NCBI GenBank assembly: GCA_000091205.1
Contig: AP006501.2
Source: Cyanidioschyzon merolae
Lineage: Eukaryota
DNA length: 64,000 nucleotides
Strand: one strand, 5' to 3'
Under the pieces are notes generated by a model. It was not told where the DNA came from. It saw only the letters and a program-made list of their open reading frames with translations, and did no database searches. A program made the position numbers and the translations under genes. Positions 1-56,570 of this stretch are shown here, one piece after another. How positions within the stretch are numbered: position 1 is the first letter of the stretch; each line of letters opens with the position of its first letter.

Positions 1-2339
1 GCGAGCAACTCGCAGTCCAGCGTTTCCTGTGGCTGCATCTCGCAGGGTGCAGGCGATGCGCTGCTCTGCAAAGCGTTCTTCTCATCGGGTTGAATCGACG
101 AATCTATTCTCAGCGGTATGGAGTGATGGATACCATTATTTTTCACGACTTGTGTATAGGGAAACAGTCCTTGGTGTATACATCATGTGCTACGGCCCTG
201 CCGCATCGCTGAATCTTTCGATATGAATGCTTTATCCAGATGAGAATCCAATGATCTTTCTCATGGCCAGTGAGTTTTCATCAAGAATCTGTAGCATTTC
301 AGCACCAAGCAGCAGTGAGTGCGAAACGATATCCTCGAAAACATCGCCGGTGACGTCCTTTCCATGGTCTGAAAGCATGAGATGGTTCCCAGTATTGATC
401 GAGGAGTTCGTGCCTCGGTAAAGGAAAGTGATGGCGCGCAATGTTGCTGGTGGAATCATCCTATAGCAAGCACATCATCTTCGATTTCGACGCCATCTAA
501 AGTTTGCTCTGGTTACCCTACACCAGCCTGTACATGCCTCTCTGTTTCTCCACCGGTTTGACGACGAACGTTTGCTCTTTATGGGTGTGGCTCTTCCTAA
601 ACGCATCGATAGGAAACCTGCAGAATCCATTCCAGCGTTCGTCGTACGCTGTCGTCGAAGGAGCGCATGTTCAGAGGTTGCGCACGACAGCACGCCCAGC
701 GCCCGAGGCTAACAATACAATGCGATGCTTGTCGTCTGTCGTTCCCGTTCCCAGCTTATTGAACGGGTTGGTTAACGCACGAGCCCTGCGCCGTGCAACG
801 GAAACCATTGGCGACACCAATACGTTCTTACGATCGTTCGTCAGATATCACCCGTATGCGCCATTTGGACGCTCCTATACCCTCTCCGAATGAAGAGTAC
901 CAGGCATTCCCCTGCTTGATGCAATCCTCAGATGGCTGGTACATATGCGGCCGCGGTCATACAATCTGTACCCGCACCTCCTGGCGTCCGTGATACCCGG
1001 CTCTTGATACCAACCAGCCTTTAAATATGCAGAACCGCTTCATCTGTCTTCCGTCCAGTTTTTTGATTCCGCTCTCTTGATTTGGAGGTACCGCATCAGC
1101 TAATACGCAATGAAACAAGGGATGCGAGCACACAAACCAGTCTCGCTCTTCATCTACTTTGACAGTCGAAAATGCTTCTCGTTGCTCGACAAAGGCTGAG
1201 GTTTCATAACGGGCATGCGGATGCGTATTCCGCTGGTCACAGTCATTCCTGAAAACTTGTTTCTAATTCCTCCAGGCAACTGAAAAACCTTGAACGAGCT
1301 CCGCTTCTGCCCAACTCGACGTTCAACGATTCCTATGTACTTGCTCGCAGAGACGGGCAATAGCTCACTGAGGAGACCATGCATAACAAAAGCGTCCGCG
1401 GTGGTAGGTCTTGATCTTGAATACGAGTGTTCTATAGAGTAGACGCTTCAGAAGGCGAGCGCGCTCGGATTCCAGAAGCGGACCCCGTTTGCTCTAGAGT
1501 TCTCTGTTCTGAAACATGTATTAGCGAGAGACGAATGCAAGGTCGGCAGTTGTCAAGTTTCAACGAATGTTTTAGATACGACATCCATCGGTGCACGGCC
1601 GAGAGCAACACAGCGGGCTTGGATGATCAGAGGCGACTATCTCACTCTCGTTACGACGTCCTTTCCGACCCTGTTACAGAGTCGATTTCTTCCGTCATCA
1701 ACGGCTGGCTATTTGGTGGCATCAGCACCTCAGGACTGTAGTTTCCAAGTCCGCACTTTTCTAGGCCAGTGCGGAGAGCGTGCAGAACCCGCAGTACGCG
1801 CTTCAAGGAACGTTCGAGATCGATCCTCATATGGTGATGGAGGTTGATTTGATACTTTTGGCACCTGCGTTGGGCATATGACGATCGCAGATGTGGCACG
1901 GGAACGCGTCAAACCATACTGAAAAGCGCCTCTGCAAATCTCTGATACTGCGATCAGGCCGTATTCCAGCCTCTGTGCGGAACATCAGCAGCGTCTTCAC
2001 ACCAAGGTCTGACTGAGAAGTTCTGGGGGAATGCGGACAGCTGCCCGCCCCACGTCCGAAACTCATACAAAAATCAGCTTCTCGAGATGCTTCAAGGCGT
2101 GAGAAGCTGGGCGAGGCCTCTGTGGGTAATAAGACGCGTGATCAACAATGCCATGCCGCATATAGCGTTGTCCCGAATGCGAACGACTCGTCAATGGATC
2201 CGTGAACGTCGAAATGACGTCTGGCAACGAATGACAGTTTTGAATGCATTGAACCAAGCAGAATAGGCTCGCAGCCGCGTCCACCTTGACAGTTTGGGAG
2301 GCATGGAAAGCGACGTCTTCTAGCGGCAGGACAGAAGAA

Positions 2340-2650
2340 TGTGGGCGGTAGACGCCAAGAAGAGTGCTTCGAGGAAGCATGAGGTGTTGCGCGATCCTGT
2401 ACATCTGGTGAGTTTTAGGCTAACGCATGATATAAATCACGCCCCGGCTGATGTTATCGTCTTTATCACTTGTCGCTGCTTTACAAATAGCAGTTTGGAA
2501 CCCGTTGAGCACCCAAATACACGTCTCCCATCTGTCTCGAACAAAGTCTCATCGAACGAGACGAATACCCGTCAATCATGGGTGAAGCTTTCGGATCTCA
2601 ATACGATATCGAGTTTAGATTATCCAACGCACGACAGCCTCCCGTAGACG
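2340..2650 (+). mobile_element. Copy H, a degraded zinc-ribbon/RuvC-III remnant
   Basis: ORF 2339..2647 contains '…DVIVFITCRCFTNSS…' (matches VVKVdpryTSqTCskC), followed about 35 aa later by '…VKLSDLNTISSL' (matches DLNAxINILRL). Confidence 0.35.
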
Positions 2651-2987
2651 CGTACCCGTTTCTTTCATCATCCTCGTCTCTTCGCCAACGCTCGTATCAA
2701 AGGTGCGAAAACCTCAAATCCTGTCGCGTCTTGCATAGTATTTCATAAAGAGCACATGGTTTCGGATGGAAACGTGTCGAGATAGTCCTGGAGATGGCGT
2801 TGGATAAGCTCCGTGTATGGTAAAGGTCGTTCAGGATTGGGACAACGAGACCGGCGGTTCATCCGCCTGGTCACTCCTGAATAACAGATTTGTACCATTG
2901 ACGTCTTTTCTTTCGCAATACAGAACTGAGGGCATGAAATGTTCCCGCGACATTTCTCCAACCTATGGGGTACAATCCGTTTATTGA

Positions 2988-3752
2988 ATGCCTATGAAGA
3001 GAGCGAAAAAGAACAAAGAAGCGCGCTGCTACAAGTGCTCCAGAATTGACTCCTCTGTGTATAACAGAATCGCACCGCTTTGGAGGACAAACTGCACAGC
3101 CGACGTTATCCTCGCGCCCACACGGTTCCTCAAGAAGCCGCACCTGATTGAGGGACGACGAGTCTACCACACATTCGGGTTCTGGCTCGCTGAAACCCAT
3201 CACATACTAGAATGGAAACCGTCCATCAAGCTAGCTCGGGAGTGCAATCTAAAGTTTGAATCTCGTCCCGTCGTCATCAGCACCGTCATTTACGGGCTTT
3301 TTGTGTGGCTGCTTCTGTTTTCTCTGTTCTATCTCGCGCTTGGGATACACCGGTCACTCCATTCCCGCTGGCTCGATTTTCAGCAGGCGGGCAATGTAGA
3401 ATACAGCGTCCAAGTCCCTATTGCACAGCTTACGACTGTTGCCGACGCATTTGATGCACAGACAGGAGTTGCGATCTGCGCTTCGCTTCCTACGTTCATC
3501 ACCTTTGGGTACAGCGTCGGTGCGAGCCTCCGCAGCGATATCACTCGCTTGTGGTCATGTGTTACCGCACAGGTCCACTACAGCTCCTCTTCATCCGAGA
3601 GCCTCCTGGCGGCGAATGAACACTTGCCTCATCGCTTGGTACATGCTCTTGACAAAAAAGGAAGGCTAAACTCGATGCCGTTCTCCGTTTCCGCACCCGG
3701 CGCCCTACGCTTTGATCACGGGCTCCGTCTGGGCGACCTCCCTGGTGAGTAG
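2988..3752 (+). CDS. hypothetical protein with a hydrophobic segment (VVISTVIYGLFVWLLLFSLFYLALG); no family recognised
   Basis: 254-aa ORF from the track. Only a predicted transmembrane-like stretch supports it. Other-frame ORFs overlap it and it sits next to a repeat copy, so it may not be a real gene. Confidence 0.25.
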   Translation: MPMKRAKKNKEARCYKCSRIDSSVYNRIAPLWRTNCTADVILAPTRFLKKPHLIEGRRVYHTFGFWLAETHHILEWKPSIKLARECNLKFESRPVVISTVIYGLFVWLLLFSLFYLALGIHRSLHSRWLDFQQAGNVEYSVQVPIAQLTTVADAFDAQTGVAICASLPTFITFGYSVGASLRSDITRLWSCVTAQVHYSSSSSESLLAANEHLPHRLVHALDKKGRLNSMPFSVSAPGALRFDHGLRLGDLPGE

Positions 3753-5899: not shown

Positions 5900-6440
5900 G
5901 GTTTCAGTGTTTATCCATGCAGATTTCGAGCCTGAGAGGCTGCTCCACAAAGTGAGATCGCGTCAGCACCTCGGATCTCGTCGTCAGCATCGCATATCGT
6001 TTGATATTGATTGCGGAATTGAAGTCTCGGGCCACGACCTTCATGCGTTTATCACCTTTGCTGGAACCCATCCATCCTACGATTCCTGTAACTCACACCC
6101 TCTGTGCCACTACAGTCTCGTCATCGCCCCATCGATCAGATATCTTTTCTCATCTATCTCCGTTTGGTTCTTCTTCCTCTTGTTCTTCGTTATTTGCACC
6201 TCTATGTTCGACGTTTGGCGCCAAGATGTATTTTCAGGTTTTTTCCCGGGAAACCGGCGATGATGACCCTCCTGGATCCCTGACTACCATGTCCATGTCT
6301 TTTGCTTGGATTTTTTACTTGCTCAAATGAACGCACTTCGAATGCATCAGCTACAAACCGCGAAAAAGCATTTGATGACATGCACCTGGATGTGGAATGC
6401 ATTTGGCGTCTCTGAGCATGTAATACGATCTTTGTCTGGG
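5900..6440 (-). mobile_element. Copy A, a short internally deleted derivative that abuts the ALG14 start
   Basis: ORF 6202..6402 (−) reads '…FSRFVADAFEVRSFEQVK…'. An unlisted 46-aa ORF at 5904..6044 (−) reads MKVVARDFNSAINIKRYAML…. Nucleotides 6130–6440 align with 34340–34640, for example CTCAAATGAACGCACTTCGAA[T/C]GC. Confidence 0.65.
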
Positions 6441-13399: not shown

Positions 13400-14090
13400 T
13401 CCAGTTTGCGCCGGAAGGGTTCTCTCCTAACGGCATGAACCAATGCGTTCATTTCCAAGAAATAAGGAATGAGCTGGGCTGTATACTCCAAAATGTCGAG
13501 ATGGAGGGAAGGTAGCCGACCGCTGCGGCGATAGAAAACCATGGAGAGCTGATAGAGCACCAAATGGCCCAGAGGGCGCGAATTCGCGGACTGCTTACAT
13601 TGACGAATTCAAGAACAGACAATAAACGCATGGAACTCTTGAACCGAGACTTTCAAGGCGCTATCAATATCAGACGATGTGCGGTGTTGAAGACAAGACC
13701 CGAGGATCTGACGCAATCCATTTTCTTGCGGGGCCAGCCTTTCAGGGTCGAAGTGTACAAGGAGAAGCTGAGACCGATCGCAGAGGGTCGGTCAAGAAAG
13801 GCTCGAAGGCGTGTCCAGGTGGGTAGCTATGTTTACCCTCCATGGCTGGGAAGCTTTTTTTTGTTGCAGTGAACGTCTTCTGTAGAACGCCAAGAAACGT
13901 CGCTCCGACACAAAGCGATCTAATACTACGCACGTACTCGAAGGGTGCTGATCGCAAGCAAAGCGTGGATCGCTACTCCCGTCTGTGCATGAAATGTGTA
14001 CGCGGTATCCGGAAGGCGCAAGACAGGAACTTTAACGCTGCCGTGAACGTCCTTCGATTGCTTGCAATCGATCTAAAGCGAACGTAAGAA
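13400..14090 (+). mobile_element. Copy B of the TnpB/Fanzor-like element (5' region + S1 + zinc-ribbon/RuvC-III S2)
   Basis: ORF 13564..13872 (…NKRMELLNRDFQGAINIRRCAVLKTRPEDL … GSYVYPPW) is followed in another frame by ORF 13842..14087 (…YSRLCMKCVRGIRKAQDRNFNAAVNVLRLLAIDLKRT*), which reads CxxC…D-R-N-F-N-A-A-V-N-V-L-R-L. An upstream TGCGTTCATTT box (~13430) resembles the 5' regions of copies A, C and D. Confidence 0.6.
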
Positions 14091-23695: not shown

Positions 23696-24329
23696 GCACA
23701 GAGTCTGCGTTCTTAGAGTGCTCGCACTGGGACTTGTACGCGTGCCATCGGTTTTGGAAAGCGGTCCAAGGTACGGTCCTGTGATGTATATGCGCGCGCA
23801 CCATGTGATAGCTTTGGCGCAGGCTCTACGAAGCGCAGTCAAGTCTGGATCACGATGATCTCCATATCGCGTGCGCTCTCGTGTCTGTCGTGGTGATTTT
23901 CGCCTTTGTAAAAAGTGTTCATGCAATGCCTTTCGGAGATTCGTCGCTTCTCAGCCGACGCGCGCTCATATGACCTCACAAGAACTGCTGCGGCCAGAGA
24001 ATCCGCACTGAACGCTCCAAAGGCTCCGTGTCCGCTTGCAGAATCTGTACGTGACCTGCAGGCCGCAATCCCGCCGAATGATGTTGCAGCACGGGTAAAG
24101 TAGCCGCTGCGCTGCATCGGATTTTTTTCATTGACAAAACGTGTGCATAGGCCAGTGCTCTCCGATTATGCGCATTTTTCTTTTCTTTCTCTTTTATTTT
24201 GTGTTTAACTTCAGTGCGCGGTAATGTATCTATAAAGCCCCCTACCTCCAAGTTACATTACCTATGCTGATTCTCGGATATTCTGGTCGTTTCATACTTC
24301 CTATCGTGTGTGCCTAGAGCCTGCCTTTC

Positions 24330-24640
24330 CGCATCCGCCGTTGCGCTTGAACCGCTGGAGCAGATAGTTCATAGAGCTAGAACAGCTTTTCTATACCCCA
24401 GAGGGCGTCGGCTCGAGGGGTGCTTCACCCGACGTAGAATCGGGTCTCGTCGTCAGTTTGTGCTCGGACAGTCTGCGGATGCAAGCTCGCCTTCGCGGCA
24501 CGACACGCTGGAGAAACTTGGCTGTTAGGATAAATCCTGGGAGTCGCCTCTCTCCTTCGTGATCATGCATGGAATGCGTTGTTGTCGGTTGGCAATGCGG
24601 GTTTGTGCTTGACGCTCACCACAGTGGATAGGCGCAGAAA
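24330..24640 (+). repeat. Dispersed repeat R3, copy 1 (partner at 35860–36160)
   Basis: 24370–24460 aligns with 35895–35985 (CAGAT..CA.AGAG..AGAACAGCTTTTC.AT.CC..ACAGAGGGCGTCG.C.CGAG…TGCT.CACC.GACA). It encodes 'RTAFLYPRGRR', and copy 2 encodes 'RTAFPFHRGRR', a TnpB N-terminus-like block. Flanking blocks also align. Confidence 0.55.
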
Positions 24641-25903
24641 GCATACTAAACCCGTGTGCGCATCCGATTCGCTGGACCTTGCGCCTAGAAGGTAGCATGT
24701 GAGTTTATTCGCCACGAATGAGCGCTGAGGCTCGGTTAGCGGACCACCAGTTGCCAGTGCTGCACTCAGAGTGAGTGTCCGGCCTTCGACTATCACGGTG
24801 ATATCCAGCTGATGCCGTCCTTCAAGGAGCTCGCTGCGCTCCTGCTTCCAGCGCGGGCACTGTAACAGTAAATATGTCAGCGTCTCGGGGTTATCGTCTC
24901 CACAGCAGGGACATTGTGATTCTCAGTGCAATCCCAGTGTTCCTATACGGCTTAGAGTCGGTGCTGCTAGCCAGAAGCCACCAACGCGGATTTTGGCGCG
25001 CCACTGGCTACCGCGCGCAAGTCCCGGGAGCTCCAGCGCCTCCCACCAGTACTTGCATGTGTATGCCGGGTTCTAGTTCCGGTATGGAGTCAAGACGGGC
25101 GTTACTGGCGCGACTGGTTCCGTGTCTACGTTCCCATATTGCTTTCTGGACGGTTCGCTTGAGGCGGCGGGAGCCTTCTACATTTCCGGGAAACGATTGG
25201 AGAGCGTGTCTTCGCCTACGGAGAGATCAGATTGCGCGCACGCTCATCGCCGCTGATTGAAATTGGCCCGTTCGCGCGTCATGACCCGTATCGTTGACAC
25301 GCGGGTCATTCTGAAGCGCGCATCGCGCCTGCGCCCGCGCCGCAGCGGCCGCAGTGCTACGTGTCCACGTATCGAGCGATCCGCATGCGTGCGGTAAACG
25401 GATCAGCACGTGCGTTCGTTCGTGCGTGACAGGGCATCGAGCGAAAACGGATCCCCGCTGAGGCCAGTAACGTCGATGCCTGAAGCAACATGTCAATGAG
25501 CCTGGTCCGTCGATGACGTTTCGTCGGAGGTGTTGGCCTCCCCAGAACGTCGTTGTATGCTCATGTACGGGTTGATATTGGGTTAGGTTTAGGTTCGAGG
25601 TCAAGTCAACTGTGCCTGTTATCTGGTTCGCCATTGACGTGTGGCTCGGTATCGCTGAGCGGTACCCAGCGCTGTGGGCCACTGTGTGCATATAGTTGAG
25701 GTGCACTTTGGGGTCCTCGAGGTTCGGTGGAAGTTGCCTGTTTGCAACTTGTTACTTGCACACAACGATTACGCACCGTTTCGAAGGCGAAACGCCCTCG
25801 TAGCGCCACAGCGAGTACGCGCTTGTAGAACAAGTTCACGGAAAGCGTCTGCAGCCGAGTCGTCTGGTGCCTGTGCGCAGTCGGCTCCGAGTCAGAGCCA
25901 CCG

Positions 25904-32865: not shown

Positions 32866-34033
32866 CCTAGCAGAGCAAACCGCGTCTCTGAAACGCTAAA
32901 CAGTCAACAAGCAGGCACCCCTACCCAGGCGACGCTGAGTGTGCGATTCTGGCCCGCTCAAGGCAACGGATTGGTAATTAGCTTAGAGAAAGGTTGTTGG
33001 CACTGCGTCGTGGCCAGAGCTACCGACACGCAGCCTCACGTGTTGATGGTCCAGAGCCAGCGCAAACGAAATCCACAGCAAAATTTAGCGACACTGCCCC
33101 GAAAAACTTTACAATACACAGGAACTGGGGAAAGTTGATCAGTACCCCACACGAGTGAACGTGCACAGCAGCATATATTCGTGCTTGCCCCGAGAAGCTC
33201 CGCGCCAAACAGGCTGCTCGCTGACGGGCAACGAGACGCTGTTTCTTTGTAACGGTACGTTTTCAGGGGCAAAGCCTAGGCGGGCGGCAGCGCGCGAGCC
33301 TGCCTCACGGGGCACGTATTCTCGCAGGAATGGACAACCTATGCAATGCTGTTGTTCTATCGATCTGGATGAAGAACGCGTTCCGTAGGTGTCGCGGGAT
33401 CGCTAATCATGCCTTTTAGTGGATGTTATCCGAGGTTTGCCCGGGAACGGCACCGTTCGATCCAAGTCAGAGAAGCCTGGCGAGGCACGAATGCACGCAC
33501 AGACATTCGGTTGGCAGAGAACTTCTCAGCGTGCCTTGAGGGCGTCTCTGAACACGAGCCATCCCTGCTGGTGGAGCATACCAAAAGAAACGCGGGTCAG
33601 AATGAGTGTAGAAATATGTGTTCCACGGATTCTTCTGGCAATTTTGGTATGCAAAAGCAAACGAAACATGGTGCCCAGAGACGCGCCAATGCACCATATG
33701 TGTAGCGCTGAACAGACACTGTGGCACAAGAGTTAGATGGGGGAAACCTCTGCGTAGAAATACAAAAACCCGAAGTTCAGGGGCACATCAGAACACAGCG
33801 CCACTACGGCATTCTGGGCTATCCCAGCTTCTGGCGAGCGCCGGGTCGAACTGGTACCCACAAGGATACAACAAAGCCGTTCCGTCGCTGTGCGGCATCC
33901 GCACCAGTGATCACCGCGCCATCGTCGGCACAACCGGCAGACTCAGCACCCGCAGGATCGTTTGAACGAAAGAGCACCTACGACGTGATGGCCGTCTCTG
34001 GTTAGAGATGGTACCCGTAAAATGATGAAGGTT

Positions 34034-34640
34034 CTACGAGTACAGAGGGTAAGTATATACACACCTGCAGACGCGTCCCAGTCTTTTTTGATTGGCTGCC
34101 TGCTTTCGGCTGCAGTTTCTCCCTGCGCACTTCGAGTCTGAGATGCTGCCCATAAAGTTCAATCGCGCTAGCTCCTCGGGTCTCGACTTCAACGCCGCAT
34201 ATCTACTGACATTGATGGCGGCTTTGAAGTCTCGGTTCACAAATTCCATGCGTTTCTTGCTGGCGCCGCTGCTTGTACTCACCAGTGTAAGTCGTCCTCG
34301 AAGTCGTGGCCTCGGTGCTACAGCAGTATCGTCGTCGCCGTCCCGTCGGGCAAACACCTTTACTGGACTATCCCCCTACTTCGTCTTCGCCACTTGCTCT
34401 TTTCCGCTCGATGGTCGGCGAAAAGGGGAATTTTTTCGTTTCCTTTCCGGGAGCCGGCGATGATGGCCCTTCAGGATCCCCGGCTTTCATATCCATACCT
34501 TTTCCTTGGGGTTTTATCTCTTCAAATGAACGCACTTCGAACGCGTCTGCTATAAACCGCGAATAAGCATTTGGTGACACACATCTGGATGTGAATCACA
34601 ATCGAGATGAAATCCATAGCATTGAACTCCTGTGCCATCG
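34034..34640 (-). mobile_element. Copy C, a short (~0.6 kb) internally deleted derivative that retains N- and C-terminal TnpB-like ends
   Basis: ORF 34368..34580 (−) reads '…YSRFIADAFEVRSFEEIKPQGKGMD…' and matches the TnpB N-terminal signature 'kAyKfRLyPtkeQ'. ORF 34034..34357 (−) reads '…KKRMEFVNRDFKAAINVSRYAAL … SKCAGRNC … RVCRCV'. The nucleotide sequence is co-linear with 5900–6440 and, in reverse orientation, with 56060–56560. Confidence 0.65.
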
Positions 34641-35859
34641 GAGCACCGCGAATGTCTGGCACGCGAGGCGCCCAGGGGACTGAGGTCCGTCCGCCCTACA
34701 CCAGGGTTGCTGACCCGAGGTCTGCGTACCGGAACCGCGAAGGAGCTTGCCAACTCCTTAGTCAATAGTTTGGTTGGGTTGTATTGGCGTACGCCATATT
34801 CGCCTGACTGCGTTGCAAGGTAGCGTAGCTGCTTTTGAAACGGAGCTAGCCCTGGTCCACGGTTCGAAAGTTGCGGGCGTGATGCGCGGCCCCATGCCCC
34901 GGAGGTTTGCCATTGAGGGCTTCAAGTTCTCGCTGTATTTGATCGTACCGTTTTGCGCTGTTGTGTTCTTTGGTTCCAGCGATCACTCCTGGCTCGAGCA
35001 AGCTGTCGAGCGGTGGCGCTACGTCCAGTATCCCGTCAACGAAGAGTCAACGCTGACCTCCGCTGAAATCACAAGAAGGGTGTTTAAACAGCCGAAAACC
35101 GGGGCAGCTGAGGACCATCGAAAGTGAGCGAGTCTCGCGAAAGGGCGCCGCCCTTGCGCCTTCCGGAAGACACCCGTCTGGTCACTCTCGATGAGGTTCT
35201 GCAATGTTGCTGACGATCTCAACAGCAGGATGCGTGGATGGAAGCGTGGGCTTGCATGCTCGTCGAGACCTGAAATCGAAGAATACCCAGGCCTGCGCAG
35301 ATAACAGCATCGGTTCAGAAGCCAAAGTCGCAGTCTCCATAAGCAGATAAGAAATGACATCGGAACGGCCGGCTGTCAGACACAGGCACAAGCCATCGCA
35401 TATCGAAGAAGCTCGCTGGCCTCTATTAGACATCGTCATCTTACCCAAACGCTCACATCATTCCTTGTGAAAAAGCCATGGACAACGTAACGCCGAGATC
35501 GAGGCCTCTGTGCTGCATAATGCCTGCAACGAGCACGTTGGTAATGTCTAGTGTCAGCGATTTCTCCCATGCGCCACAAGAGATAAACGATTGCATCTCA
35601 AGAGCTCACAAATAGGGAACGGCTTGCCTCGTTCAGCGCTCGCTTCGAAAAATTTTAGCCCTGTCTGCGAGGCGACAACGCGTATCGTAATGCAGATTTT
35701 TCTCTTCGACAGAACCTTGGCACAACCTAGCTATCCCCGATCGCAGCGCCTGTTCGCAGCGCACAGGGAAGCATCAATCGTTCCACCTGCTTCCAAGTTC
35801 CACACGCCGTGCTTTCCCCCGAAGGAACCAGTAATTTTTACGCCATAACGTGTGCCGAG

Positions 35860-36160
35860 TGCATGCTATGAACACCAGCCGTAGCGCCTAAACCGCTGGC
35901 GCAGATGCATCACAGAGACAGAACAGCTTTTCCATTCCACAGAGGGCGTCGCCCGAGCAATGCTACACCTGACACGGAAACAGGGCTAATTATGATTCTG
36001 GGATCCTGCAAGCTGTGCAGACGGACGCACTGCCTGCGACAGCGCGAATCGACATTATAGGAGACCACTGCGACCAGGGCGACGCCCAGGCGCAGGCTAC
36101 CGGCTCCTAGTCCCAGAATGATATGCGTTGCGGATGAGTTGGTCAGGTCTCAATAAAGCA
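35860..36160 (+). repeat. Dispersed repeat R3, copy 2, immediately upstream of element copy E
   Basis: See R3 copy 1. Confidence 0.55.
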
Positions 36161-37470
36161 CCTGCCACTGGGAGGAGCATCAAGCACTAGCCTGGGAGAC
36201 ATGTCCAGCTCGCGGGAGTTTCCGCCTGTAAAGTAAACTTTCGAAGGTATGGATGTCTCTTCCCCAGTTTGCAGTTTCTCGAAGAGGGAAAAGAAATCAT
36301 TATATCGTTGCTAGTGAATCGTGAGTCTCTGTTCTTTGTTCTAAATAGCGCGGTCGATATGCGCACCTCGAGATTTGGGAGTTACGAGACACGACGCGCA
36401 TCTCGCCATGAAGGGAAATACGATCGTGATCATTCGTTGTCTTCTTGCTCTAACGACAAGTTGCATTCGCGTAAAGTCCTAGCAAAGTATTGTTTTCATT
36501 TCAATCGTGTTTCAACTCTCAGGTTAGTGTACTCAAGTGATTTTTCACGGTTTATACCGAATGCGCTCAAAGTGCGTTATAAGAAAAATTAGGAAAAGGA
36601 AAGTTACGGAAAGGGAAGCGGAGGGTCCTGGAGACGCGGTTTCGTCGGCTAGCGGAGAAAAACGAAAAACAGTGCGGAGCAAAGCGGAGCACGAGAAGAC
36701 CAAGGAGCAAATGCAGGAGGCCGCACGTCAATGGCTGCAAGAAAGGCGACACTACGACGATATGGTAGTGAAAGACTGACTTCTCGGACATACCAGGGAT
36801 CCATCCAAGCAAAAGTTGTGAGAGGCCATCAGAAACCGTGTCGATTCGTACTCCATGAGTGTTACAAAGGCTTCGTCAGGGATCATGTATTTGGTGAGGG
36901 AGATGTATCGCGACGTGACGCACATGGAAACAGTCGAGAATCCGGAAGGGTTTTTCAACATGGCGTCTATCCGCCACCTGATGCTCGGCTCAGGGGAGAC
37001 GTCGATGAAACATGAGCGAGTGCACGCCCTCCACGAAAATCACACCAAATATCGCTTCAACGGTATTCGATACAGGGGTGACTGGGGTATTTACACCTAC
37101 GGGGCGATGAAGTACATCACGAACAAGAATAACCACATGATCGTGAACCTCAAACGTCTCGTGATATGCGCCGTCTTTGTGCTGTACCCGGGCCTCTCTC
37201 CAGAGGAATGAGATGGGCCATCGTCAGTGCCATCACCAACGATCGTCATCATGAAGATGAGGTCGAATTTGTGGACAAGAAGACCTCACGCAGGAGCACG
37301 AATAAAGCTTCTGCCCTGCGTGCGGCTACTCAAGAGCATCGTGCAGTCGTGGGGCTGGTCAATCCAGCAGAAGAGGTATCAGATATGGAATAAAGCATGG
37401 GAAAAGAAGTAACAACCAAATCCTGCGCTATTTCGTATTCCTGAACCGAGAACTCGAACACAAGGCGGAA

Positions 37471-38247
37471 ATGGAGCAGGGTGTGGGGAACAATGCAGAG
37501 TCAGAGCAACGGAAGGCTGCGCTTCTGGAGAAGCGCTTCGACGTCGTTCGTATCTGCAACATCAAGTCACAATTTGGTACAATCGGCTTCAGAGTTCTTT
37601 ACGGCATCATGAACGAGATCTGTCCGGAGTTCGATGTAAGGAAGATAGAGTTCACCGGCGAAAACCGGGAATTCCATTGGAAAAATATCTTCGATTTCAA
37701 ACGTCTCAAAACGAGTAAGCAAAAAATATTCACGAGGATGATAGAAACCGATGGGGTATCCATGTGTGTACACTATCCGCGCTTGAAGGCAGATGGTCCT
37801 GTTGCGTCGTCGGCGTCGCCCGTGACGAAGCATGAAGGTGAGAAGAAGGCGGATCCTACGACGCAGAAAGTGCGGGGAAACGACTTTGTCGTTGGCGCGG
37901 CGAAGCATGAAGATGAGAAGGAGGCGGATCCTGCGACGCAGAAAGTGCAGGATAACGACTTTGTCAGTGGCGCGAACCCCGGAAACACGAATATCATAAC
38001 CATTGCAGCATGCAAGCGTGCGGGAGATGGTAAGGACGGCAACTTACGTCTGAAAGACACGCGTCTTTTGAGGTTCTCGAGAGCAAGATACTATCGAGAA
38101 TCCGGTATAATGAATGCGAGGAAGAAAATCGACACATGGAATGCAGGAATGAAGGATCACCTGGAAGCTATGAGCGGGGTAACGAGCCGCGGAGCGGACT
38201 TTGAAGCTTTTCTGAAATTCATGGGAGTTCGTGCTGCTCACTGGTAG
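37471..38247 (+). pseudogene. TnpB/Fanzor-like ORF fragment (C-terminal half, long variant) carrying an internal 75-bp tandem duplication
   Basis: Its start (MEQ…EQRKAALLEKRF) and end (…FLKFMGVRAAHW*) are homologous to ORF 38549..38926 (MEQ…QKHRALTEEQMERRAKF … GVMYARW*). A duplicated block [25 protein letters not shown] / [25 protein letters not shown] lies at roughly 37835–37985. Confidence 0.55.
37835..37985 (+). repeat. 75-bp tandem duplication (2 units) inside the copy-E ORF
   Basis: catgaaggtgagaagaaggcggatcctacgacgcagaaagtgcggggaaacgactttgtcgttggcgcggcgaag is followed directly by catgaagatgagaaggaggcggatcctgcgacgcagaaagtgcaggataacgactttgtcagtggcgcgaacccc. Confidence 0.85.
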
Positions 38248-38548
38248 GCGCTGTGGAGAGAATATACCAAGCCCCGGTGTTCTCGTCTGTGTATGAACTT
38301 GTACTGTGGGAAGAAGCGTGCATTTGCCAACTTTTTCTATCAGTTGAACGCCTTGGCTGGAGGACGAGAGTCAGAGAGTCGTAACAGCGACTGGAGCAGG
38401 GCTCTGCGCGTCCAAGAAAGGGAGCATACTCCCTGTATCGACAAGAGCGTACAATGAGTGCGCTCACCGTTTTGTTGTAATACCGATAGATGAGTTCCGA
38501 ACGTCATACATACACCGTGAACTGGGACGTACACTTCACAGGGTCGAG

Positions 38549-38926
38549 ATGGAGCAGTACCAGCAAAGCCCTGGAGATATACAAAAACACAGAGCGCTGA
38601 CGGAAGAGCAAATGGAACGGAGGGCGAAATTTCGTGGACTAGTCGCACTGGTGAGTGTACCCAACGGCAAGAAACGTATAGAGTTTCTGAACCATGACTT
38701 TGACACAGCAATCAATGTAAGGCGATGTGCGGTGCTGGAGAACAGACCCCCCGCCCCACCCCCCGAGTTGACTAGAGCCAACTTCGTCGGGCGACCTCTC
38801 AAGGTCCCGTTGAACGGAAAGAAGCTGAAACCAATAGTAGCTGGCCGGTCGAGAAAAGCCTGGGAAGCGACTGCGCGTCTGCGTAGAGACATCCACGCTG
38901 TCGGCGTGATGTATGCGCGTTGGTAA
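38549..38926 (+). pseudogene. TnpB/Fanzor-like C-terminal fragment (S1 type: KKRIEFLNHDFDTAINVRRCAVL)
   Basis: Shares the RDFxAAINV block with ORFs 13564..13872 and 34034..34357, with which it is co-linear. Confidence 0.55.
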
Positions 38927-39310
38927 ACCTGATTTGCCGGCGGTAGTTTCTTCAAAAAAAGCGCTCCGCAGCCAGCCATTTTGTGTGCGCAGCGAGCGTC
39001 ACTGCCCCTTTCAAAGCATATATTTCATATCCTAGTATCATAAAAGTGAGGGAGGTGTATTCTGAATACGAATATTCTGACGTGAAGAGCTCTTGATTTT
39101 TTTAAACACGACAGCAGCCCATACACGGAAGGGTGACGGCGACGGTGCGAGCGTGACAGGTTCGTGTACTTATCGAAGCAACATATCGCCCTCTAGGCCA
39201 CTGTTTTGCGCGGCGATATTTCCGCACTGAGGTGGGGTGTTCGTATTTTCTGTTTACAGGTGCCATATATTCCTTCATACGGTGCTAAGCTGTGATATAT
39301 TTCGGAAAAT

Positions 39311-40945
39311 ATGGATCAGGAAGCGGAGGCGCCGAGGATCCAGACTCCCAACGACCGTCCAGAGTCGGAGGGCGCGCCAGGCTCCGAACAGGATGGGAAC
39401 TCCCCATACTATCCCAGGATACATATCAAGTCGTTTGCTTTTGAACAAGAGCCTCATAGCGACATGGGATCTGCATGTTCGCTGTCGCCAACTGCCAAGA
39501 CGGAGGTGAATAAGCATGCCGTGCCTGCTGAGCAGCCCGCTGGTGCCGTTCACATGCAACCAGATGACCAGGGCAAGACACAAAGAAGTGTACAGAAAAA
39601 TGATGATCGTCCATCTGAAAACAGCGGTGGCTCGGAGATGAAACGAGCAGGCGTGGAAACGACGCGCCCCAGCCGAGCAGCGAAATATCGCACGGCTTCA
39701 CCAACACCCTCCACGAAAGGGCACAATCGTGGCACTGGAGCAACAAGAGGTAGGCCGAGAAAATACCCGGTAGCTTCAAGCCCATCAGCGGCGGAAGCCA
39801 GAATCACAAAGCGTCCGTATGGGGCATCGAACTCCATGCAACAGCACCATACCGACCGACACGTTGTGCCGGCGAGCGATGCACCGCAACCAGAGACCCC
39901 CACGGATATCGTCCTCTGCGCCTGCGGCAACGTGATCGACTTTGGGCCGATGATTCAGTGCTCTCGTTGCAAGGGCTGGTCACATAAGGTCTGTACGGGC
40001 CTATCGGACGCGGAATGGGAGCAGCTGCAAATGCAGCACGCCCGCTATCAGTGCTGGCTTTGTGCACCACGTAACGCTCGACCGAACTCCATCGCTGCAG
40101 ATGCAGTGCAGGCGTTGGCATCTGTTCGAACCGGTTCCAAGTGGAATACGATTATGGGCCGCATCATCGAGTCGGCGGCCATGGAAAACGCGGAGATTGT
40201 CGGTATGCCGCTCAGCAAACCGCGAAAGCATCGCATGGTTGAAAATATCATGACGGGCACGGGTCCGGGTCGAACGCATCGCTCGTCGGGCCCTCGAGTC
40301 GCGTCAACCGAGGGTTCAGTGCCGCTTGTGCGAGATAGCGCGAAAGAGAACGAATTTTTCGAAGCGCTCGCTGCACATTGGCAGCGCAAAACTGGGCAAC
40401 CGTGGCAAACCCCTATGTTTCGGGGGAAATTATTGGACCTCTATGCTTTATACTGGGGCGTCAAGGCACGCGGGGGCATTGACGCTGTGATCGCGTCGAA
40501 GCGCTGGCCCGAGATATGGCGCACCATGCGCAACTACTACCGCGAGTCTACGGATCACTCGTTCCGACTTCGCGTAGCGAGCCAGCAGTACTTGGCTGAC
40601 TTTCTGAGGCAGTACGCCGGGCCTCAGCCTTGGGATGTTGAGGTGCTGCACTCTGAGGAAAACGCGGACGAGGCCGTTACCCAGCAAAAAAAGCGAGCAC
40701 CTAGCGACCTGGTTCCAGCAGGCTATAAGGCGAGCCGGCGTGAGCGGGTCGTTACCACGGAGGAGTTTGTCAAACCTGAGCTGGCGCTCCCGAGCTCTGA
40801 ACCAGGTCAAACGAGTGCGAAGAAGTCTGAAACGAACGGCCCGCGGTCAGCACGGAGCCCAGCGGGTTCTGCTGTTCGCAAGGCAAGTGATGCAGTGAAA
40901 CCTGCGCCTCCGCAAAGCGACGACGACGAACTGAGCCTCGGGTGA
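39311..40945 (+). CDS. ARID/BRIGHT + PHD-finger chromatin protein with AT-hook
   Basis: Contains an AT-hook (GRPRKYP), a PHD finger (CACGNVIDFGPMIQCSRCKGWSHKVCTGL … QCWLC) and an ARID-like block (FFEALAAHWQRKTGQPWQTPMFRGKLLDLYALYWGVKARGG). Confidence 0.7.
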   Translation: MDQEAEAPRIQTPNDRPESEGAPGSEQDGNSPYYPRIHIKSFAFEQEPHSDMGSACSLSPTAKTEVNKHAVPAEQPAGAVHMQPDDQGKTQRSVQKNDDRPSENSGGSEMKRAGVETTRPSRAAKYRTASPTPSTKGHNRGTGATRGRPRKYPVASSPSAAEARITKRPYGASNSMQQHHTDRHVVPASDAPQPETPTDIVLCACGNVIDFGPMIQCSRCKGWSHKVCTGLSDAEWEQLQMQHARYQCWLCAPRNARPNSIAADAVQALASVRTGSKWNTIMGRIIESAAMENAEIVGMPLSKPRKHRMVENIMTGTGPGRTHRSSGPRVASTEGSVPLVRDSAKENEFFEALAAHWQRKTGQPWQTPMFRGKLLDLYALYWGVKARGGIDAVIASKRWPEIWRTMRNYYRESTDHSFRLRVASQQYLADFLRQYAGPQPWDVEVLHSEENADEAVTQQKKRAPSDLVPAGYKASRRERVVTTEEFVKPELALPSSEPGQTSAKKSETNGPRSARSPAGSAVRKASDAVKPAPPQSDDDELSLG

Positions 40946-49899: not shown

Positions 49900-51200
49900 A
49901 ATGCTCAAGCCGTTTGCATCCTGGTCCCATACAAATGCATGGTGTGCGCGAAACCCCACGTAACATGAACGTGGAACGCTGAACCGCTTGCAACGTTGCT
50001 GGCATTCGATATTTTCCGAACTTTTCCGAAGATATGCAACCTGAAGATTCGAATTGCATGAATGAAGGCTGGCGGATCCGTATGTAGTTTCAGGATTGTG
50101 GGTCATGTCCAGGGAGTGGCTCCCGCGATTTCTCGGCACTGGAATTCGATACGTCACCGTCATCAAGATGATTTTTCGTGGCGCGCTCGAACAAGGGCTC
50201 CTAAAAGAATCGCTATCAGCATCGAGGGCACGCGCAAAAGCCTCTGCTCGTCCATTTCCGTACTCGTAATAGGTTCAAATCACGCATTCTTCAAGGTTTC
50301 GATCTTTGTGTTGCAGGGCGCCTGTTGAGTGCAGCGATTCGCACCACTCAATTGACGACGATGAAGAACATTCCACGTGATCCATTGACGATGTTTTCAT
50401 GCGCTCACGCCGAAACCTCGCTGACCGCCTCTCGGCATATCATCGATTCTGTTCGCTAGATCAACCATCATCTGTTCCGTGTCATCGATGAAATGGCACT
50501 GGGCTGCAGCATGATGCTTTTTGCGGGAGTTGCTCCCAGACGTTCAAATCTCTTCTATTCCTTTTACACGGAAATGGGTCTTGGACTAGGAGTTCAGTTA
50601 CGGTAGCGATCGTTGCCACTGCAGTGTGCGTCATCATGTCGCATAAAGGGAACGGAGACAATTGAAGACTTCTCGGTGCGTTCTCTAATCAGGCGTTCCC
50701 CTCCGGTACCCGTATCACCATGGAAAACATCGCGTTCAAGATCTCCTCTGTCGAATGGAATAGCATGTGCTTGCATATGCAGTCGATAGCGTACTCACCG
50801 AGGGTATCGCGCAGACGCAGCCCGTGATCGATGTTACGTCAACGGGCGCGAACATGGAGCAGAGCACCCTGATGAGCTGCATGGAACCCCAGGGGGCACG
50901 TATCAAACGATGAAGCAAGCCTTCTCGTTCCAAGGGGCGGCTATCGGGGAAGCATTTATAATGGATATACGGAAACACCTGATCATTGCCAAGTGTCGTC
51001 CCGGTGAAGCGCGCAGAAAGGCGGTATGTAAAAAATGAGAATAGAAAGCGATGCGCAGATCGCAGCGTTCGCTTTTAGCATAAAATACGTCGACAACTGC
51101 CGAGAGAAACAATGTAGAGACTTTCAGGCTGCCATCAGCACACTTCGACTGCTGACAATCAAGCTGAAGGGAAAGGAAAACCAAGCAGTCGCAGAAACGG
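49900..51200 (+). mobile_element. Copy F1, a ~1.2 kb repeat; direct partner of F2, lying 3' of HisA
   Basis: Nucleotide similarity to 52880–54210 across several blocks: CGATATTTTCCGAACTTTT, GCAGCGATTCGCACCACTCAATTGACGACGA, CATGGAAAACATCGCGTTC. It ends with ORF 51035..51301 '…YVDNCREKQCRDFQAAISTLRLLTIKLKGK', a CxxxC + RuvC-III-like motif. Confidence 0.6.
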
Positions 51201-52879: not shown

Positions 52880-54210
52880 TACGCCAGAGCAGTTCAAGCC
52901 TTGTGCACGCCAGACAGGCACAGGCGCGCTGCGTCTTCCACGGCAACACCCGTGTCGGATGAAAGTGGAACACTGGGCTGCTCGCATTGGTGCAGCTTTA
53001 CGATTTTTTCCGAACTTTTTTAGATGTAAAACCGCGGCTTTCGGAAAGAAGGAATATCGGCTTACGGGTTTATACGTAGTTTTAGGATTTTTGGGTGTCC
53101 TTATGGAATGGCTTCTTCGAACTTTGTCCGCTACAGCTCGTTTCGTCACCGGAATCCAGATGGGATTCTAGATCAGAATCTGGATGATTCGCAAAGTCGC
53201 CGAACATGAGTTCGAGAATCAGTCGACATCAGTTCCCGATTCATTCGAGCATGCCTCCAGTCTTCTACATTCCTTTCATGTTTCATGTTTAAACCAGATT
53301 TTCTTCAACTCTCCGATCTATGCCTTGCAAGGTGTTTCGTGGGCGCAGCAATTCGCACTTCTGGATTGACGACAAGAAAAACTCGCGGCCGTCGCTTGAC
53401 GACAAGTTCCAGAGCTCATGTCGAAAGCTCACCCAAGTCGTCACGTTTCGTAAACGATTCTGCTCGAAAGACGAGTCCTCCTCTATTTGTGGCCCTCTAC
53501 AAAACGACATTCGACTCCAGCACGACATCGCTTTTAGGGCTTGCTCCTAGAGGCTCCTATTTCCTCTGTTTGCGTCGAAACCGGATTCGGAGTCAGACTT
53601 GAGCCATCGCACCGATTGCTTCTAGTGGAGCGTTTGTCACCGCTGTGCACGAAGAGCGTGAAGACGAATCTTAATTTCTCGACACGTTCTCTGGTCTGGC
53701 TTTTCCTTCCGGTGCTCGTTTCATCATGGAAAACATCGCGTTCCACAAATCCTCTACCGAATGGAACAGCGTGTGCGTGTGTGTGCACCCGGCATCCTTC
53801 TCACAGAGGGATCCTCCAGAAAACACCTGTTACCATAGATTACGTCACCTGGCACGTAACTGGAGCAGGGCATCGAGGGGAGCCCCCTGTACCTGTCAAG
53901 GGATGTATCGAGCCATGAAGCAAGCCTTCTCGCATCAAATGGCGCTGGCCGAACGAACGAATGAGCGTGGTGAGCTTGTAGGAACACTTGACTTGGTCCA
54001 AGTGTCACCGATGCGACGGGCACATTGAGACTGTACGCATCGAAGAGGAAAATTGCAACTGACGCGTAGATCGCGACGACTTCCTGTGCACGAAATGCGT
54101 TGACAATAGCTGGAAACTGCGAATTCCGGACTTGAACGCTGACATCAACATCCTTCGACTTGTGAGAATGGAGCTGGAGAGACTAGCACATTTAAAGCCG
54201 GGTATGAGAG
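52880..54210 (+). mobile_element. Copy F2, the direct partner of F1, lying 5' of HisA on the minus strand; it carries the best-preserved zinc-ribbon/RuvC-III block
   Basis: The boundaries and motifs are the same as in F1. The C-terminal segment is listed as a separate feature at 53982..54218. Confidence 0.6.
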
Positions 54211-56059: not shown

Positions 56060-56570
56060 GACTGGCGGGTTTACACGTTCACCTGAATTGTGTTCCACAT
56101 CCAGATGCGTGCCATCCACTGCGTGTTCGCAGTGTACAGCAGATGCGTTCGAAGTGCGTTCATTTGAACAGATAAAAATCCAAGGGAAAGATATGGACGT
56201 GCAAGTCGAGGATCCTGAAGGGATTTCAAAGCTACCTGCTTGATAAAACCCTCATCTTGCTGATTATCAAAAGGCGAAGAAGTAGAAAAAGGAGGTAGGT
56301 GAGATAACGTGCGTGCTCGACGGGATGATGTCGAGACTGTAGTGGAACATGGGGCACCAGTCTGAAGACTCCTAGCGTTGACGAGTTCATCTAGCATCAA
56401 TATATGCAAGGAGTTCGTGAACTGCGACCCCATCACCACCATCAATATCAGATGACGTGTGGCGCTGAAGACGTGAGACCCCAGGAGCTGACGCGATCCA
56501 GTTTTATGGGGCAGCCTCTGATGCTCGGAATGTGCCTGGATAATAACTGAAGCCAATAGCAGCGGGTGCG
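56060..56570 (+). mobile_element. Copy D, a short degraded derivative in plus orientation
   Basis: ORF 56040..56243 reads '…CTADAFEVRSFEQIKIQGKDMDVQVEDPEG'. A degraded '…EFVNCDPITTINIR*' lies at ~56420–56470 in a broken frame. 56075–56250 is the reverse complement of the 6250–6440 / 34470–34640 block. Confidence 0.6.

Follow-up and report, generated by a model that had tools for sequence, protein, structure and literature searches.

A decayed copy of the Fanzor1-encoding transposable element CMe-1A on chromosome 19 of Cyanidioschyzon merolae

RESULTS AND DISCUSSION

Identity, boundaries, and age of copy E

Copy E (positions 35704 to 38963, plus strand, of the 64,000-nucleotide [nt] stretch of DNA analyzed here, termed the window herein) is an old, fixed, and inactivated copy of the transposable element CMe-1A, an assignment to which we give a probability of roughly 95% and against which nothing was found. 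The window is part of chromosome 19 of C. merolae 10D, and eight of its open reading frames (ORFs) agree exactly with proteins of C. merolae 10D (BAM82837-BAM82850). CMe-1A is a transposable element family of ∼3.2 kb, the sole gene of which has no introns and encodes a Fanzor1 protein of 734 amino acids (aa). It was described with a consensus of 3169 bp and ∼150 copies, each ∼80% identical to the consensus, and without terminal inverted repeats (TIRs) (Bao & Jurka 2013, Mob DNA 4:12; PMC3627910). The family is also found in Repbase, and its consensus has been available since 2013 both as DNA and as protein (PMC3627910, supplementary files 2 and 3).

Blastn with the published consensus matched consensus positions 62-2196 to 35766-37900 (82.3% identity) and positions 2117-3089 to 37896-38879 (81.9% identity), which gives an overall identity of 82% across positions 62-3089. 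In a global MAFFT alignment, copy E reaches both consensus ends (1-3169) and measures 3260 bp. Its first ∼60 nt and last ∼80 nt were placed by this alignment and not by blastn and, because the terminal ∼60 to 80 nt have diverged beyond what blastn can detect, the two ends are precise to a few bases only. The preliminary description of this DNA, which had been made from the letters alone and had placed the element at 36250-39060, thus began ∼545 bp inside the true boundary and ended ∼100 bp beyond it. It correctly recognized a mobile-element copy with a degraded TnpB-like protein, since copy E belongs to an ∼3-kb repeat and its broken frames are homologous to Fanzor1, the eukaryotic branch. It was also right in ranking copy E as the most complete of the window's copies, since it is the only near-full-length one found with the consensus.

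The published element and copy E have in common the host organism, the single-exon gene order, a 5′ module resembling TE-N2_CMe, and the lack of TIRs and target site duplications (TSDs), and the identity of 82% corresponds to the divergence reported for typical copies. CMe-1A has no transposase, TIR, or TSD; scores of end-to-end local alignments did not exceed those of shuffled sequences for either the consensus or copy E, and no duplication common to the flanks of copy E was found. Copy E differs from CMe-1A only by its own decay, that is, by a lost start codon, three stop codons, frameshifts, an aspartate-to-asparagine exchange, an additional 75-nt repeat unit, 12 inserted nucleotides, and decayed ends. 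An empty site that could define the ends or a TSD was sought among metagenome contigs carrying the orthologous locus, and all seven of these contigs were occupied by the same dead copy (95 to 99.5% identity).

As the preliminary description had judged by eye, the region is comparatively rich in AT: the GC content of 36250-39060 is 50.0% versus 55.0 ± 2.2% for non-overlapping windows of equal size, every one of which is higher, and that of 36200-37400 is 49.0%. The low value arises because the CMe-1A consensus itself (52.3%) already lies below the genome average (54.8%) and because decay brought a net drift from G to A. CpG deamination or RIP-like decay was considered as a cause of the AT shift and rejected: C-to-T changes were found at 26 of 240 CpG sites versus 36 of 459 non-CpG sites; the excess is modest, and there is no RIP signature.

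Copy E is the remnant of one collinear gene

The element begins with the 5′ module (consensus 1-635, located at 35704-36336 by alignment), followed by a non-coding leader (36337-36605) for which the consensus has stop codons in all three frames; in two relatives (L001 and L002) the leader stops lie at differing places. The start codon at 36606-36608, aligned to consensus position 906, has been lost (ACG for the consensus ATG). What had been taken for a frameshifted N-terminal signature, FSRFIPNALKVRYKKN (36542-36592), is therefore translated leader upstream of the true start at 36606: the consensus shows the same frame offset together with stops, and the FSRF frame is not that of the ORF.

Tblastn aligned the CMe-1 protein to copy E as four consecutive frame-shifted pieces that together cover residues 2-722, and translations and the alignment agree with this order. 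Residues 2-198, from the N-terminal WED/REC part, are found in frame 2 at 36609-37199 (69% identity), residues 191-261 in frame 1 at 37175-37390 (67% identity), residues 262-563 with the RuvC-I motif in frame 0 at 37393-38382 (70% identity), and residues 559-722 again in frame 1 at 38360-38860 (65% identity). In two relatives (L004, 1581-3929, and L007, 1558-3918), by comparison, one tblastn segment covers CMe-1 residues 1-734. The question of whether the stretch between 36.7 and 37.5 kb has any homology to TnpB/Fanzor proteins can thus be answered positively, since after frame correction 36.6 to 37.5 kb corresponds to CMe-1 residues 2-261 (67 to 69% identity). ORFs 36731..37015 and 37227..37412 lie in the wrong frames.

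The same map bears on the proposal that a partial tandem duplication doubled the C-terminal unit and left a zinc ribbon in the middle. ORFs 37471..38247 and 38549..38926 are both of considerable length and do follow each other, and there is a genuine tandem duplication at 37821-37970, which a repeat search recovered as a pair of 75-nt units (family D2, 87% identity) just before RuvC-I. However, the two ORFs correspond to successive portions of CMe-1 (residues 262-563 and 559-722) and not to one portion twice; a stop at 38245 lies between them, as does a +1 frameshift near 38357, and self-tblastn showed no second copy of either piece within copy E. The supposed zinc ribbon, LCMNLYCGKKRAFANFFYQLNA, aligns with a conserved helix, RLRMNLYCGKQRAFANFFNQL, and its cysteines are not conserved: the first is a private arginine-to-cysteine change, and the second is glycine in the wider family consensus (LYGGKKRVFA). 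We consider this proposal highly improbable and read copy E as one collinear gene remnant.

The 75-nt units encode a 25-aa repeat, KHE[GD]EK[KE]ADP[TA]TQKV..NDFV, of which the consensus has one unit, copy E two, and the relatives one to about six. In the model of one relative (P0001, residues 378-469), the segment is predicted to be disordered.

Inactivating lesions

The lesions of copy E were read from the alignment to the consensus and from translations. Three codons have become in-frame stops, at 36777-36779 (TGT to TGA), 36819-36821 (CGA to TGA), and 38245-38247 (GAG to TAG), and the frame is shifted at least three times, by +2 nt near 37201, +2 nt near 37388, and +1 near 38357. In-frame indels (−3 nt near 38664 and +12 nt near 38746) and additional +1 indels (near 38853 and 38883) were also observed. 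The longest stretch that is still open spans 258 aa.

At 37975-37977, the RuvC-I codon GAC has become AAC, which turns GADPG into GANPG. This aspartate is the equivalent of SpuFz1 D383 and is invariant in 58 of 58 CMe-1 family members. The RuvC-II glutamate (IDEFRTS, codon 38492-38494) and the RuvC-III aspartate (NHDFDTAINV, codon 38696-38698) are kept. An intact Asp, Glu, Asp triad in an open frame is present in the family and absent from copy E. Because the first catalytic aspartate is replaced and the frame is broken, copy E is a Fanzor1 pseudogene and not a working Fanzor1.

Two other readings of these lesions were weighed. Fanzor genes of other eukaryotes have gained introns. Multi-exon Fanzors are listed in a supplementary table of Bao & Jurka (PMC3627910), and several frame changes are needed to read copy E, so that the frame changes might be taken for spliceosomal introns and copy E for an intact, intron-containing Fanzor gene. 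Against this, the family consensus gene is a single exon of 734 codons, each frame change is an indel of 1 to 2 nt relative to the consensus with unbroken homology across it, the three stops are point substitutions within conserved codons, and the start codon is ACG. In addition, the only gene annotated between BAM82843 and BAM82845 is an ARID/PHD gene; an exact match to its 544-aa ORF was absent from the records, and the annotated start probably differs. Introns are thus scarcely credible here.

Alternatively, copy E might be a domesticated, nuclease-dead Fanzor derivative that serves the host, for instance in RNA-guided regulation. One of the three catalytic residues is exchanged for asparagine while the two others are kept, and the locus is conserved at 95 to 99.5% in related strains. 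That conservation, however, holds for the whole 33 to 41 kb including the non-coding flanks, the strains simply being very close, and the lost start, the stops, the frameshifts, and the short longest open piece all speak against this reading. Domestication therefore has a negligible probability in our view, and the pseudogene reading is retained.

Fanzor1 membership of the CMe-1 clade

Independent tests with sequence profiles and with a predicted fold place the CMe-1 clade among the true Fanzor1 proteins. A profile built from 58 family members (A2) matched Parasitella Fanzor1 PpFz1 (9cf0; E value, 1.1e-20), SpuFz1 (8gkh; 6e-12), and GtFz1 (9cer; 1.4e-4). This depth was required: a shallow profile of 23 sequences (A1) yielded only a chance angiogenin match, and phmmer with the reconstructed C-terminal half of copy E found no match in the PDB. 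A Pfam scan of the frame-corrected copy E protein and five relatives gave no significant family, including OrfB_IS605 and OrfB_Zn_ribbon, and the precomputed database annotation PF26935 is only a weak DUF8286 match.

The modeling against the TnpB/Fanzor fold that the preliminary description had proposed was carried out on an intact relative, P0001, rather than on copy E. With the shallow alignment A1, AF2 gave no usable model (pLDDT 31.5), and the model of P0001 reached a pLDDT of 80.6 and a pTM of 0.78. In a Foldseek search of the PDB, the best seven matches of the P0001 model were all Fanzor1, with TM scores against SpuFz of 0.58 to 0.60 (query) and 0.70 to 0.73 (target) over ∼770 columns, the whole length (SpuFz1, 0.6/0.73). 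This match takes in both the WED/REC N-terminal half and the RuvC/NUC C-terminal half. The N-terminal half, too, aligns with solved Fanzor1 structures by both profile and fold. The predicted catalytic residues of P0001 (D484, E656, and D725) are invariant or nearly so in the family.

Like SpuFz1, PpFz1, and GtFz1, the CMe-1 proteins have the D/E/D RuvC positions (D383, E541, and D606 in SpuFz1) and are encoded in a multicopy transposable element. They differ in that sequence identity is just 12 to 14%, in that only 0 to 3 cysteines lie between RuvC-II and RuvC-III, where the PpFz1 and SpuFz1 sequences have cysteine-pair motifs, and in the disordered 25-aa tandem repeat before RuvC-I. The likeness to prokaryotic TnpB (IS200/IS605 and IS607) consists of a remote RuvC similarity (Foldseek match to ISDra2 TnpB 8h1j, 273 columns, E value of 0.02) and of a guide RNA that, by analogy, would be read from the 3′ end of the element. 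In contrast to TnpB, CMe-1 is about twice as large, with a big N-terminal REC/WED part, has no TnpA partner, and resides in a nuclear eukaryotic host. Across ∼80 copies of the RuvC half, conservation was 0.80 at codon position 3 versus 0.88 to 0.95 at positions 1 and 2, which shows that the protein was under purifying selection while the family spread.

Modules and short relatives

Bao & Jurka (PMC3627910) report 95% identity between the 5′ 635 bp of CMe-1A and TE-N2_CMe, a separate element of ∼70 copies. Copy E may contain a junction at which TE-N2_CMe (35704-36336) abuts a Fanzor unit (∼36337-38963), CMe-1A then being a composite whose two parts spread together. Several observations agree with this: in about half of 80 related loci, the match to the consensus starts at ∼640 to 700 and other sequence lies upstream, a TE-N2-like fragment stands alone at 24241-24694 of the window, and the short derivatives in the window have no 5′ module, their first positions lying near consensus ∼800. 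On the other side, consensus 1-3169 is present in many loci as an undivided block that has a common left boundary and a T-rich left flank, which indicates that any composite transposed as a unit, and the upstream sequence common to relatives may partly be orthologous host DNA; one stretch of a related locus (L029, 2251-3330), for example, resembles, by eye, a host short-chain dehydrogenase gene. We regard a composite origin as possible, though somewhat doubtful; it would refine and not replace the CMe-1A explanation.

The three short relatives in the window (5925-6375, 34063-34612, and 56126-56519) are 0.45 to 0.55 kb long and internally deleted, with consensus ∼800-969 (leader and first codons) joined to ∼2851-3088. 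The earlier remark that the short copies jump straight to the C-terminal part is therefore borne out.

The 3′ end and a candidate guide RNA mechanism

In nearly all of 33 relatives, a terminal hairpin is found at the extreme end of the element. It occurs in three sequence variants with pairing kept, CGUUUUUC/GAAAGGCG, GUUCGA/UCGAAC, and GUUCUA/UAGAAC. The RNAfold energies of the two common variants were −6.7 (z −3.5) and −15.9 (z −5.9) kcal/mol. In copy E, the hairpin site (38941-38963) lies in the decayed 3′ tail (38900-38963), and its folding energy is 0 kcal/mol, the hairpin having been destroyed. Two of the variants stand in different registers. RNAalifold on 33 aligned 3′ tails found no pairs and no consensus structure, and the 116-nt consensus tail as a whole was no more stable than shuffled sequences (z −1.3). 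A search of the whole window with Rfam (gathering thresholds) gave no match, and neither did a tRNA scan of it. The flanks of full-length copies are T-rich on the left (..TTTTTC|) and start with TTYG on the right, which is only a hint of a target-adjacent motif.

By analogy with the experiments on SpuFz1, GtFz1, and PpFz1, intact members of the family would make an RNA-guided endonuclease that introduces double-strand breaks in DNA. Transcription of the element's 3′ end would yield an omegaRNA, its scaffold stopping at the element boundary and its guide running into the flank; the complex would then cut matching DNA beside a short target-adjacent motif, and such cutting might help the element persist or home. 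Copy E is incapable of any such step, because its start codon, its frame, its first catalytic aspartate, and its terminal hairpin are all broken.

A further reading, which we think unlikely, is that consensus ∼640-3169 is a self-contained Fanzor unit, with a scaffold ending in the conserved and compensated terminal hairpin, the T-rich left flank as its target-adjacent motif, and the short copies as non-autonomous carriers maintained in trans. If this were true, the short copies, which keep only the leader and start together with the 3′ end, would be maintained by intact Fanzor1 copies. No part of this has so far been reported from C. merolae, and copy E, being dead, is not directly concerned.

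Significance

CMe-1A has been known as a family since 2013 and copy E is an ordinary pseudogene, so that the discovery value is small: the consensus DNA and protein were already at hand. Copy E had been suggested as the best candidate in the window for recovering the ancestral protein; that reconstruction had already been achieved by the published consensus DNA and protein. The value of the present analysis lies in the corrected anatomy (one gene, no zinc ribbon, and a non-coding "signature"), in the boundaries and the list of lesions, and in the placement of the CMe-1 clade in Fanzor1 by independent tests of profile and fold. Four side observations may be useful for testing an intact CMe-1 protein of this thermo-acidophilic alga as an RNA-guided nuclease: the terminal hairpin with its compensatory variants, the motifs in the flanks, the zinc-finger cysteines that the clade has lost, and the disordered repeat with its variable number of units.

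Identity and extent of copy E

The CMe-1A family of C. merolae was already described in 2013, with its consensus and protein: Bao and Jurka (PMC3627910) reported a Fanzor1 family of ~150 copies, each ~80% identical to a ~3 kb consensus and without terminal inverted repeats (TIRs), and they supplied both the 3169-bp consensus DNA and the 734-aa CMe-1 protein as supplementary files. The 5' 635 bp of CMe-1A is 95% identical to TE-N2_CMe, a separate element of ~70 copies (PMC3627910). When the consensus was compared with the window by blastn, positions 62–2196 aligned with 35766–37900 (82.3%) and positions 2117–3089 with 37896–38879 (81.9%), and both consensus ends were reached by global alignment, which places the element at 35704–38963 (+). 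CMe-1 residues 2–198 (frame 2), 191–261 (frame 1), 262–563 (frame 0), and 559–722 (frame 1) were matched by tblastn at 65–70% identity, and a three-frame translation of 36100–39100 allowed the protein to be traced across four frame changes. The combined blastn, global alignment, and tblastn coverage identifies copy E as one full-length CMe-1A copy. The preliminary description had delimited it at 36250–39060, which the global alignment shows to start ~545 bp inside the element and to end ~100 bp past it. No transposase, TIR, or target site duplication was found for CMe-1A in the consensus or in the ends and flanks of copy E.

The preliminary description, which was right in kind in calling this a degraded TnpB-like element, recorded largely real features but misread their anatomy. 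The peptide FSRFIPNALKVRYKKN (36542–36592), taken for a frameshifted N-terminal signature, falls 5' of the start codon, in a ~270-nt leader. In the family consensus, it lies in a frame other than that of the open reading frame (ORF) and is bounded by stops, the ORF frame has a stop immediately ahead of the ATG, and the leader stops are placed elsewhere in L001 and L002 (loci related to copy E are numbered L001–L082). Judged from these alignments, the FSRFIPNALKVRYKKN region is conserved non-coding DNA; the true N-terminus is GPGDAVSSASGEKRKTV (CMe-1 residues 7–23). What had been seen as 0.8 kb of additional sequence corresponds to the protein's N-terminal half, where 36855..37211 and 37166..37393 are correctly framed ORFs and 36731..37015 and 37227..37412 are in wrong frames. 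The "zinc-ribbon-like" LCMNLYCGKKRAFANFFYQLNA is the counterpart of RLRMNLYCGKQRAFANFFNQL, its first Cys being a private R>C change and its second a Gly in the wider family consensus. The supposed second partial unit (38549..38926) continues the same protein, covering its RuvC-II to RuvC-III end; self-tblastn detected no duplicated C-terminal part within copy E and, elsewhere in the window, only short, diverged relatives.

Decay, age, and genomic setting of copy E

Copy E has lost its start codon (ATG>ACG, 36606) and carries in-frame stops at 36777 (TGT>TGA), 36819 (CGA>TGA), and 38245 (GAG>TAG). Alignment and translation also placed frameshifts near 37201 (+2 nt), 37388 (+2 nt), and 38357 (+1 nt), extra single-base indels near 38853 and 38883, and in-frame changes near 38664 (−3 nt) and 38746 (+12 nt). 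The RuvC-I Asp is changed to Asn (GAC>AAC at 37975, GADPG>GANPG), and the RuvC-II Glu (38492–38494) and RuvC-III Asp (38696–38698) are retained. By its sequence, copy E is a pseudogene. The orthologous locus is 95–99.5% identical in seven metagenome contigs, among which no empty site was found; gene calls of the contigs reaching the element include a 258-aa fragment and, in most, 118- and 75-aa ones. Since these contigs hold the orthologous dead copy, the insertion is old and fixed in this lineage.

The dip in GC content noted earlier is real: 36250–39060 has 50.0% GC, compared to 55.0 ± 2.2%, and no equal-sized, non-overlapping window is as low. The CMe-1A consensus (52.3% GC) already lies below the window mean of 54.8%, and copy E has drifted further from it (108 G>A versus 79 A>G changes). 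C>T changes were only mildly enriched at CpG (26/240 sites versus 36/459 others) and so give no RIP-like signature.

The ORFs of the window are long and intron-less, and eight of the nine large ones exactly match C. merolae 10D proteins from the series BAM82837–BAM82850 (CMS locus tags, chromosome 19). The neighbours of the flagged region are an ERCC5 gene (BAM82843; 29512–32865, −) and an ARID/PHD gene (39311–40945; Pfam ARID, 1.5e-12). The WD40 gene is BAM82845, so the accession series can hold just one gene between it and BAM82843, and that single number fits the ARID/PHD gene. Separately, a 61-nt direct repeat pair (75% identity; 49965–50025 and 52959–53019, spacing 2994 nt) is unrelated to the Fanzor element.

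The family belongs with Fanzor1

Searches of Pfam and single-sequence searches of the PDB were negative for this protein family. Searched against 5.8 billion proteins, the frame-corrected C-terminal half of copy E gave 108 matches at ~60% identity, all metagenomic. The longest of these matches, P0001 (752 aa), aligns collinearly along all of copy E. From 1.84 billion representatives, a full HMMER scan recovered 1232 relatives, many of which have 600–700 aa and ~35% identity; 58 of the relatives were used to build a profile, A2. Against solved Fanzor1 chains, A2 matched Parasitella PpFz1 (9cf0, 1.1e-20; the alignment takes in part of the N-terminal half), Spizellomyces SpuFz1 (8gkh, 6e-12), and Guillardia GtFz1 (9cer, 1.4e-4). 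The AlphaFold2 model of P0001, an intact stand-in for the copy E protein, was confident with the A2 alignment (pLDDT 80.6, pTM 0.78). All seven of its best PDB matches by Foldseek were Fanzor1, with SpuFz at E ~1e-15 and TM 0.58–0.60 and 0.70–0.73 over ~770 columns; Fanzor2, Cas12i, and TnpB ranked far below. The metal-binding residues of SpuFz1, D383, E541, and D606 (PMC10432273), align with P0001 D484, E656, and D725, three positions that vary little or not at all across the family. Given these profile, fold, and catalytic-residue matches, the absence of Fanzor homology at 36.7–37.5 kb that the preliminary description had named as refuting its reading does not hold. Between RuvC-II and RuvC-III (P0001 654–728), all 58 sampled clade members have 0–3 Cys, whereas the PpFz1 and SpuFz1 sequences show pairs.

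A 25-aa (75-nt) tandem repeat directly precedes the RuvC-I strand, with one copy in the consensus and up to about six among copies (L001, L009, L011, L024, L044, and others). The sole internal repeat of copy E is such a 75-nt pair (37821–37970), in-frame and one unit more than the consensus; the corresponding segment of the P0001 model (residues 378–469) is predicted to be disordered.

Other relatives and fragments

Short, internally deleted relatives of ~0.45–0.55 kb lie at 5925–6375 (−), 34063–34612 (−), and 56126–56519 (+). In all three, which are ~68–76% identical to CMe-1A, a segment running from the leader through the start codon to about codon 20 (consensus ~800–969) is joined straight to the RuvC-III/C-terminal part (~2851–3088). 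Their common boundaries, "..CACATCCAG" to "..TTTACCC", suggest an older non-autonomous subfamily. Isolated C-terminal fragments occur at 13469–13824 (+; CMe-1 residues 611–729, 52% identity) and, more weakly, at 539–787 (−; residues 543–624, 37% identity). Fragments of the 5' module only, at 24241–24694 (+; consensus 84–282 and 503–534) and 33872–33907 (−; consensus 193–228), are probably TE-N2_CMe copies without a Fanzor part. Upstream of consensus ~640–700, this module is absent in about half of the related loci (L001–L082), and at least three other common sequences are found in front of the Fanzor core, in groups that include L012/L026/L050, L004/L010/L023, and L029/L038/L045; some of this common upstream sequence may be orthologous host DNA and not element.

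Predicted function of intact members

Compared across ~80 copies, conservation in the RuvC half falls from 0.88–0.95 at first and second codon positions to 0.80 at the third. This indicates that purifying selection acted on the protein during the spread of the family, in agreement with the remark that some CMe-1A copies still encode an intact Fanzor1 (PMC3627910). Judging by SpuFz1, GtFz1, and PpFz1, intact copies would most likely encode an omegaRNA-guided double-stranded DNA endonuclease, and the omegaRNA would derive from the 3' end of the element, with the guide in the flank. A hairpin exactly at the element end in nearly all of 33 non-redundant relatives is weakly consistent with such a 3'-end omegaRNA. 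Pairing is kept in all three of its variants, CGUUUUUC-UUUU-GAAAGGCG, GUUCGA-CUU-UCGAAC, and GUUCUA-CUU-UAGAAC (fold z-scores of −3.5 and −5.9 for the first two); at the terminus of copy E, the hairpin no longer folds. The 116-nt tail as a whole was no more stable than shuffles (z −1.3), RNAalifold found no consensus structure in the 3' tails of the 33 relatives, and Rfam gave no match in the whole window. Full-length copies have T-rich left flanks (TTTTTC|CGATGA) and right flanks that start with TTYG. The terminal hairpin (consensus 3146–3169; L004–L077) and these flank motifs are possible candidates for an omegaRNA 3' stem and for target-adjacent-motif and target-site signals of the family.
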